Shown piece by piece: positions 19,846 to 19,897 of a stretch of DNA of 64,000 bases. The stretch is from a bacterium (lineage in GTDB: Bacteria > Margulisbacteria > Marinamargulisbacteria > UBA817 > JABISL01), in NCBI GenBank assembly GCA_018700055.1, contig JABISL010000042.1, positions 7,298-71,297 of the forward strand, written 5' to 3'. The first letter of the stretch is position 1; every line of letters begins with the position of its first letter. A program made the position numbers and the translations under genes. The notes below the pieces were generated by a model, which did no database searches, was not told where the DNA came from, and worked only from the letters and a program-made list of their open reading frames with translations.

Positions 19846-19897
19846 TCAATACTTCTGTCCTCGACGTATAATAATACGCCTGCGGAATAAGTATTGA
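19846..19897 (+). repeat. Copy 3 of the conserved structured element (core about 19856-19885), carrying compensatory substitutions
   Basis: Core TGTCCTCGAC-GTATaataATAC-GCCTGCGG: inner stem pairs swapped (GC to CG, CG to GC) relative to copies 1/2, with pairing maintained; flanking arms TCAATACTT / AAGTATTGA complementary; about 30 nt after epimerase stop. Confidence 0.6.

Follow-up and report, generated by a model that had tools for sequence, protein, structure and literature searches.

What kind of element keeps a hairpin paired while exchanging the bases that form it? The question is raised by a window of 64,000 nucleotides (nt), the whole stretch of DNA analysed here, from contig JABISL010000042.1 of a Margulisbacteria-like genome, in which a short hairpin occurs three times and in the third copy carries two base pairs that are swapped relative to the first two. 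A preliminary description of this DNA took the swaps as direct evidence of selection on the hairpin structure. Our analysis bears out the maintained pairing of the inner hairpin, which emerges far more strongly from an alignment of the family than from the three window copies, but it gives no evidence of a dedicated structured-RNA gene, the element being insertion-polymorphic and present in both orientations. The hairpin is real but not free-standing, its 5 base pairs (bp) forming the tip of a 120-nt rod. This rod is an insertion-polymorphic, interspersed element of the kind called MITE (for miniature inverted-repeat transposable element), being short, non-coding, multi-copy and terminally inverted-repeated, as MITEs generically are. 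We consider it probable that the window copies are non-autonomous mobile palindromic elements of this type, possibly related to the Correia elements of Neisseria (Correia repeat enclosed elements, CREE, also termed NEMIS).

The core of each window copy (Table 1) reads TGTCCTCGA-N14-CCTGCGG on the plus strand, with N14 forming a 5-bp stem and a 4-nt loop in all three. Copies 1 and 2 have GCTAT-AGTA-ATAGC as their N14, copy 3 has CGTAT-AATA-ATACG; pair 1 is thus G-C in the former and C-G in the latter, pair 2 is C-G and G-C respectively, and the loop is AGTA against AATA. Read directly in the three copies, the double swap and the change of the loop from AGUA to AAUA are exactly as first described. 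The direction of change is another matter, since the swap itself is real but the family consensus stem is CGTAY/RTACG and therefore copy 3 is the consensus-like, ancestral-like form while the double swap in copies 1 and 2 is derived. A search of the window with the core pattern, allowing up to three mismatches, gives five matches where 0.74 are expected by chance, two of the five without the hairpin. Our covariance model R1, run with filters off, recovers only these three copies, at 49–54.5 bits, the next match scoring 9 bits. On their own the window copies are weak evidence, because between them they represent a single event of evolution.

The family outside the window was reached by three pattern scans. 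A fully open pattern with 16 specified bases, run against genomes, gave among the matches listed almost only chance occurrences in high-GC coding DNA, the only clear instance among them being L030 (loci outside the window carry L numbers) in a Carboxydocellales metagenome-assembled genome (MAG), where the stem differs from that of the window. The same open pattern matched viral sequences 18 times with only L004 genuine, an element on an IMG/VR contig that lies 42 nt after a phage major capsid gene and again has a different stem. A 20-base pattern, in which the 16-nt core and the TA/TA of stem pairs 3 and 4 were specified while pairs 1, 2 and 5 and the loop were left free, found 24 metagenome loci, all 24 of them full elements with flanking conserved motifs: GGCGTTG in the 5′ arm, CCGCCTTG(A/T) in the 3′ arm and, in many cases, UUUUGG/CCAAAA at a greater distance from the core. 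The covariance model added copies whose core or loop varies, namely a second copy in L148, a tandem copy in L142, and L161. These model-found copies keep the stem, which is CATAC-TATA-GTATG in L148, in a variant core AGTCCTCGA / ACTGCGG, and CGTAT-TTTAT-ATACG in L161.

In an alignment of 26 distinct sequences from the window, the metagenomes, the phage contig and the Carboxydocellales MAG, pairs 1, 2 and 5 of the stem occupy 78 cells, of which 76 are paired. At the first pair, 19 sequences have CG; it is AU in three, GC in two, and UA and UG in one each; pair 2 is GC in 14, AU in nine, CG in two and U.U in one; pair 5 is CG in 18, UA in six, GC in one and A.G in one. Both sides have changed in 24 cells, as against 5.8 ± 2.0 in shuffles, none of 500 of which reaches 24, and sliding the partner columns by one to three positions lowers the pairing from 99% to 21–51%. 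Uncompensated changes were sought at the two pairs that are swapped in the window, and the search returned a single U.U (L141, identical to L152) and a single U.G wobble (L151), each in one of the 26 sequences, against 18 cells at these pairs changed on both sides.

Aligned and folded with their surroundings, copies 1 and 3 are imperfect palindromes of 120 and 119 nt, both of which start with CTGCCATAAATTTT and end with AAAGGCAG. Copy 3 folds as one long hairpin, at −38.7 kcal/mol on the plus strand and −47.3 kcal/mol on the minus strand, and its inner 71 nt stand at z = −5.2 (plus) and −6.6 (minus) against shuffles. From base to tip the rod, into which a copy can fold either as single-stranded DNA or as RNA, comprises an outer helix; an A/T-rich helix such as UUUUGG/CCAAAA; the GGC-GUU and GCC-UUG motifs; copy-specific helices, one or two in number; an invariant asymmetric internal loop, UGUCCUCGA / CCUGCGG; and the 5-bp hairpin with its 4-nt loop. 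The helix beside the core, CCGTTTTT/AAAAACGG in copy 1 and TTTTTCAATACTT/AAGTATTGAAAAA in copy 3, is unlike in sequence and self-complementary in each. Across the family the element measures 119–165 nt, long hairpins are predicted at all loci, and terminal inverted repeats are present, formed in the window by the outer helix CTGCC.../...GGCAG and in the Desulfosarcina group by GAAGCCATCTCAAAA/TTTTGAGATGGCTTC. Copy 2 has unpaired arms (z = −0.1), with a self score over the inner 25 nt of 6 against 22–29 for other copies. It appears mosaic-like and decaying, with a 5′ arm as in copy 3 (GGCGTT...TTTCAA..CTT) and an inner hairpin as in copy 1.

That the arms of each rod are matched to one another is seen by exchanging partners. 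With strand-symmetric scoring, the own 3′ arm is the best partner of the 5′ arm in 14 of 16 representative copies, which have self scores of 28–54.5 and partner-swapped means of 7.5–20; the two exceptions are the decayed copy 2 (rank 3 of 16) and L138, which belongs to the subfamily of copy 1. The arms of copy 1 itself score 54 with each other and a mean of 16 with the arms of other copies. The other helices of the rod covary far more strongly than the tip hairpin. As to which strand folds, the minus strand is the more stable at most loci. The ratio of A.C to G.T among isolated wobbles on the plus strand is 40:22 outside the Desulfosarcina group (p = 0.03), driven by L140 and L138, and 20:23 inside it, where the bias is absent; A.C on the plus strand corresponds to G.U on the minus strand. 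An assignment of the strand from wobble pairs is not decisive.

Insertion is directly visible at one locus of Desulfosarcina type (L149, assigned via named homologs of a flanking gene), where a rod lies between a Gate-domain gene and a DUF3108 gene. The site is empty in an ortholog of 87% identity (L164), in which the two genes abut with a 0-nt gap, and it lacks the element in D. alkanivorans (L166), with a 30-nt gap. The insert corresponds precisely to the rod, TAGAAGCC...GCTTCTA: GATGAT-TATA-AAGCC at the empty site stands against GATGAT-TA[GAAGC...GCTTC]TA-AAACC at the filled one, and the upstream gene, now shorter by its last four codons, stops at the TAG of the element. Among the Desulfosarcina-group copies, conservation reaches precisely to the ends of the rod, TAGAAGCC...GGCTTCTA, and no further, and TA flanks both ends of most copies there, as it does those of L155 and L004. 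The target duplicated on Correia insertion is TA. A Margulisbacteria relative that shares the gene neighbourhood of the window (L161) is free of the element at the ftsK, epimerase and gap junctions; it carries one 1 nt after the CCA end of its tmRNA, and the window tmRNA is without a downstream copy. Small hairpin targets of the form CTGCC-N-GGCAG that had stayed empty were looked for in the window, and there were none. Mobility is demonstrated for the Desulfosarcina subfamily only, and for the window genome we infer it.

The hosts of the element are the Margulisbacteria-like genome of the window, Desulfosarcina-type contigs, the Carboxydocellales MAG and the phage contig, and the neighbours are mutually unrelated (GAPDH, FtsK, an epimerase, a phage major capsid protein, FlgL, Ffh, ABC-2 and an FGGY kinase), with no association with a particular gene at the examined loci. 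Within the window the GAPDH gene (gap) precedes copy 1, ftsK copy 2 and an NAD-dependent epimerase gene copy 3. These three copies lie in sense orientation after their genes, as do those after the phage capsid gene (L004) and after the tmRNA (L161). The opposite orientation is found in the rRNA operons of L155 and L156 and at L149, between two co-directional genes. The L155 copy (1185–1304) occupies the 16S-tRNA spacer and the L156 copy (7806–7925) ends about 2 nt before the 16S 5′ end, and in both the transcript carries the reverse-complement core. A cobalamin riboswitch adjoins the L156 rRNA operon. The element supplies the stop codon of its upstream neighbour at window copies 2 and 3, L004 and L149. 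The ftsK stop TAA (13132–13134) aligns with the TAA in the 5′ end of copy 3, both lying inside the 5′ end of the element, and the 3′ ends of ftsK and of the epimerase gene are not native, their stop codons being those of the element.

Copies may also cluster. The window holds three within 12.4 kb, L142 a tandem and L148 a pair. In L142 (1380–1582, minus strand) two direct tandem copies lie about 120 nt apart, the first of them cut by the contig end. The two copies on the Desulfosarcina-type contig L148, at 4986–5041 (minus) and 12200–12255 (plus), form an inverted pair 7 kb apart; both have an extra small hairpin of the CCGCCAGGGGCGG type in the 5′ arm, and the variant core is that of the first. 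A transposase sought between them was not found, the interval holding housekeeping genes only (pheS, infC, a deaminase gene and aprB around). Two further elements are interrupted: a nested GC-rich hairpin, GTCCCGCCGAGCTTCGGCGGGAGAC, is inserted in the 3′ arm in the L147 region 3241–3360 (minus), and at L154 (408–527, plus) the 3′ arm is replaced or truncated. Both are cases of secondary insertion or decay inside elements.

Gene ends and intergenic DNA are where the element inserts, once at a TA in the Desulfosarcina locus, and it often provides the stop codon of the gene that it enters. In the mechanism that we propose, present copies would descend from lineages still competent to spread. Spreading would need paired halves and an intact asymmetric core, and it may be a folded single-stranded intermediate, recognised at the core, that needs the pairing. 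If only pairing-competent lineages spread, then stem changes would be compensated, the core invariant and the apical loop free. Once inserted, the rod would be co-transcribed with its neighbours and yield a long duplex of RNA that influences how transcripts are processed, on the model of Correia elements, whose RNA duplex in Neisseria is an RNase III substrate or binding site that alters mRNA stability (PMC2649163, PMC10969869). Given the insertion polymorphism and the occurrence in both orientations, the conserved pairing may have several causes, reflecting a folded DNA or RNA form used for spread, host-level RNA effects, or arm-to-arm templated correction.

Several observations weigh against the view that the window copies are mobile elements. 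They show no clear TA flanks or target duplication, and a TA duplication is in general unproven because the sole empty site reads TATA, so that insertion between two TAs fits equally well. The examined loci contained neither a transposase nor another gene for mobilisation, with no search made for matching ends beside a transposase. The invariance of the core is partly built in, because members were ascertained by exact core match. Moreover, a MITE moved by a DDE transposase needs its terminal repeats only, and a phylum-spanning 16-nt core combined with a saturated loop looks more like lasting purifying selection on every copy, such as a host-useful RNA would undergo.

A host-functional structured RNA of 3′ untranslated regions (UTRs) and spacers, whose internal loop would be a protein or RNase site and whose copies would have been spread or kept since they regulate the processing or stability of mRNA or rRNA, is compatible with a mobile origin. 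The combination of a conserved internal loop, covarying helices and a free apical loop is the pattern of riboswitch-like and protein-binding RNAs, and the arms of the Desulfosarcina group are about 85–90% alike while their 4-nt loop differs in nearly every copy. Copies are, in addition, transcribed, lying after stop codons, a tmRNA and a capsid gene, before a terminator, in a 16S leader and in a 16S-tRNA spacer, and the better folding of the minus strand at most loci and the excess of A.C over G.T are both in keeping with such an RNA. That bias, however, is weak, owing to two loci and absent from the Desulfosarcina group, and the core meets transcription in both orientations. Nor is the element constant in place: it is present or absent at one orthologous site (L149 against L164 and L166), its positions are not kept between syntenic relatives, it has no gene association, and Rfam gives no match even at E up to 10. 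We regard a host RNA as an unlikely account of the window copies, if one that deserves to be kept in view. A purely mutational origin of the compensation appears considerably less probable still, whether through template switching within a strand (quasipalindrome correction), which would copy the mutations of one arm to the other, or through gene conversion among copies. It would draw on the fact that the whole element is a long imperfect palindrome, that the change in copies 1 and 2 is a CG to GC dinucleotide inversion on both arms which stepwise would take four transversions, and that the mosaic appearance of copy 2, with copy-3-type arms and a copy-1 hairpin, suggests exchange between copies. 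Correction of this kind would nevertheless erase asymmetry, whereas every copy retains the core (9 nt against 7 nt) as well as the GUU/UU bulges; uncorrected arm mismatches are common, with 80 non-wobble mismatches against 571 Watson–Crick pairs outside the Desulfosarcina group, and the arms of copy 2 have decayed uncorrected.

The rods do lie directly after stop codons and between convergent genes, as intrinsic terminators or plain stabilising 3′ hairpins sharing sequence by chance might, but we find this explanation scarcely credible. A T-run is absent after the rod on either strand and the flanking A/T tracts are reversed (U-run 5′, A-run 3′), copies also lie upstream of 16S and inside operons, and a generic hairpin would not retain a 16-nt asymmetric core. 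A terminator scan calls, in place of the rods, a canonical hairpin downstream of copy 1 (Table 1), between that rod and the stop of a convergent lspA-like gene; copy 1 therefore lies within the 3′ UTR and is not its terminator. The mobile palindromic element, subject to the points raised against it above, remains the reading that we prefer.

A number of other identities were considered and set aside. A riboswitch or leader RNA does not fit copies that are not upstream of genes. By inspection of both strands, a kink-turn is incompatible with a G or C, not A, at position 2b and with a register that conflicts with the covarying stem. A LexA-type GTAC-N4-GTAC protein site is not matched by copies 1 and 2, and mimicry of 16S h45 or of the sarcin-ricin loop comes down to coincidental hexamers. 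SECIS-like signals, hairpin, HDV and other ribozyme cores, RAT or ANTAR antiterminators and dif/Xer sites are each unfit in their defining feature or in position or orientation. Searched with Rfam 15 at the gathering threshold, the whole window yields only RNase P RNA, tmRNA and four tRNAs, leaving the element unmatched; at E up to 10 the region 19780–20020 gives chance hairpin matches only, and at E up to 1 nine other loci give no match at the element. A full-text search with the core sequence returned primer coincidences only.

The hairpin of copy 3 also makes a TATAAT hexamer with TTTTCA 18 nt upstream (19843–19872, plus strand), scored 10/12 in a promoter scan. Promoters created by Correia elements have been described (PMC10969869); the promoter-like sequence of copy 3 is probably incidental, because the loop is not conserved in the family.

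Table 1. Coordinates in the window of the three copies, their parts and other features.
Feature	Position	Strand	Remarks
Copy 1, whole rod	7488..7607	+	120 nt, CTGCCATAAATTTT...AAAGGCAG; in the GAPDH gene (6477..7481) 3′ UTR
Copy 1, core	7531..7560	+	GCTAT-AGTA-ATAGC at 7540–7553; 54 bits with R1
Terminator-like hairpin	7649..7683	+	15 pairs, then T-run TTTATTTGTT; not part of the element
Copy 2, whole	13124..13243	+	Degenerate, boundaries approximate; directly after ftsK (10801..13134)
Copy 2, core	13169..13198	+	Hairpin 13178–13191, identical to copy 1; 48.9 bits with R1
Stop TAA of epimerase open reading frame (18861..19820)	19818..19820	+	Inside the copy 3 5′ end CTGCCATAAATTTT
Copy 3, whole rod	19812..19930	+	CTGCC...GGCAG, 119 nt; contains 19846–19897
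Copy 3, 5′ motif	19832..19840	+	GACGGCGTT; family consensus GGCGTTG; Correia GTACGGCGTT
Copy 3, core-adjacent helix, 5′ arm	19842..19854	+	TTTTTCAATACTT; pairs with 19889–19901; inverted repeat
Copy 3, core	19856..19885	+	TGTCCTCGA 19856–19864, hairpin 19865–19878, CCTGCGG 19879–19885; 54.5 bits with R1
Copy 3, core-adjacent helix, 3′ arm	19889..19901	+	AAGTATTGAAAAA; pairs with 19842–19854
Copy 3, 3′ motif	19902..19910	+	GCCTTGTCC; family consensus CCGCCTTG
tmRNA	27496–27881	−	Rfam 15
tRNA gene	32119–32192		Rfam 15
tRNA gene	37727–37799		Rfam 15
tRNA gene	41849–41921		Rfam 15
tRNA gene	45296–45369		Rfam 15
Class A RNase P RNA	45673–46026	−	Rfam 15

Elsewhere in the window, an unrelated-looking inverted repeat (45539–45650) with 31-nt arms that are 84% complementary and 50 nt apart lies between the last of the tRNA genes and the RNase P RNA of Table 1, and gives no match with R1. 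The genes of a two-subunit ATP-citrate lyase are found at 20025–23225 (minus strand), with their nearest named relatives, at 72% identity, in Ca. Marinamargulisbacteria.

For annotation, the three hairpins are to be entered as one mobile-type repeat family and not as RNA genes. A MITE in a Margulisbacteria-like MAG is in itself ordinary; what is unusual is a phylum-spanning core with covarying helices, together with a possible link to Correia elements. Small palindromic repeats are commonly regarded as junk confined to a genus, internally conserved by descent only. Here, a core and rod shared across distant phyla and a phage contig, with helices that covary freely, amount to a natural mutagenesis map, according to which the element needs the core, the two flanking motifs and the pairing, but not the sequence of loop or stem.

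Repeat families such as ERIC, RPE, BOX/RUP/SPRITE, REP and REPIN lie at gene ends or in intergenic DNA, are co-transcribed, form hairpins and occur in either orientation, and bacterial palindromic repeats can supply stop codons or sit in frame and show presence/absence polymorphism (PMC10969869). The present family shares with them its location, hairpins, orientations, stop codons and polymorphism. It differs in that ERIC, RPE, BOX and REP families are conserved by descent within a genus whereas its core spans phyla, and in that, unlike theirs, the helices between its conserved blocks differ wholly among the copies of one genome and yet pair. An identity with REP or REPIN is excluded by an opposite layout, the centre being conserved and the arms variable in the family, and by the lack of a GTAG head; the handful of loci inspected showed no RAYT gene, without a systematic search. 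The attC sites of integrons resemble the family in lying at the 3′ end of open reading frames, in forming a conserved folded hairpin of low sequence conservation and in having conserved unpaired or extrahelical positions, and attC acts as a folded single strand. The conserved boxes of attC (RYYYAAC / GTTRRRY) are, however, at the base of the hairpin and its centre is variable, in contrast to the conserved centre and variable base found here. The attC assignment was rejected on the variable rod base, a GTTG that is present on the 5′ arm only and not mirrored, housekeeping neighbours and the finding of no integrase. Several diverged paralogs per genome, internal-loop nucleotides that do not vary, helices that covary and an apical loop free to change recall riboswitch-like RNAs; unlike these, the family is not tied to one position or strand with respect to a regulated gene, is insertion-polymorphic and matches nothing in Rfam.

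The comparison with CREE, made with sequences from the supplement of PMC2649163, reveals the same blocks in the same order and orientation as in the family: (GTAC)GGCGTTG, CCTCG, CGTAC-loop-GTAC, CTGCGG and CGCCTTGTCC(T). Copy 3 matches CREE exactly in ACGGCGTT and in GCCTTGTCCT, the 10-mer made up of its 3′ motif and the next base. The best collinear chain of exact blocks of at least 6 nt, 32 nt at L137, is reached by 10 of 3000 shuffles family-wise, and the collinear signal appears in the plus orientation only. A loose three-block regular expression run over 2.66 Mb finds 15 family elements and two other places. The CREE core is directional, with the ends CCGGTACGG(CGTTG) and (CGCCTTG)TCCTGA, for which copy 3 has GACGGCGTT and GCCTTGTCCT while copy 1 is without GGCGTT; the family consensus motifs GGCGTTG and CCGCCTTG stand in the order and orientation of the CREE core ends. 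Telling against such a link, nhmmer finds no match between the family profile and CREE, nor between CREE profiles and 1.33 Mb of loci, and model R1, run on 80 kb of Neisseria prophage contigs with CREE, finds nothing at the CREE positions. A relationship therefore rests on the short collinear blocks and the shared architecture, because profile and covariance searches fail.

Both elements are small (104–157 bp in CREE), non-coding and multi-copy, both form an imperfect inverted repeat over their full length and fold as a rod (CREE as folded here), the core of both is asymmetric, and both ‘end’ and overlap open reading frames and occur in prophage DNA, for the family at L004. The target sequence is reportedly duplicated on CREE insertion, and the mobilising mechanism of CREE is given as undetermined (PMC2649163). 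There are also differences. The 26-bp Correia terminal repeat, TATAG[CT]GGATTAA(CAAAAA/ATTTAAA)..., is absent from the window copies, which have the ends CTGCCATAAATTTT...AAAGGCAG; CREE lack an exact TGTCCTCGA and have instead TTGCCTCG with 5 extra nt; they have almost no copy-specific helices, unlike the family; the 50-bp insert of long CREE, with its IHF site, is not seen in the family; and CREE reside in Neisseria, the family in the hosts given above. The window element is not classed as a CREE. We judge a genuine relationship, by common descent or through shared mobilisation machinery, to be about as probable as its absence; no such relatives of Correia elements are described in the searchable literature, within the limited reach of our search. 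Were the resemblance real, it would provide a comparative handle on how Correia elements move and on how RNase III-sensitive rods are tolerated in highly expressed transcripts.

A wider proposal, which we put forward tentatively and hold to be rather doubtful, is that the core, the ACGGCGTTG / CGCCTTGTC motifs and the paired arms define a superfamily spanning bacteria and phages and including the Correia elements, moved by a structure-specific single-strand enzyme. If such a superfamily exists, the Correia mobiliser could be sought as a gene that accompanies the element in Neisseria, Desulfosarcina, Margulisbacteria, Carboxydocellales and phage contigs. The enzyme would resemble IntI acting on attC, or the Y1/HUH enzymes acting on IS200/IS605 and REP hairpins, and would be unlike a classical transposase that binds terminal repeats.

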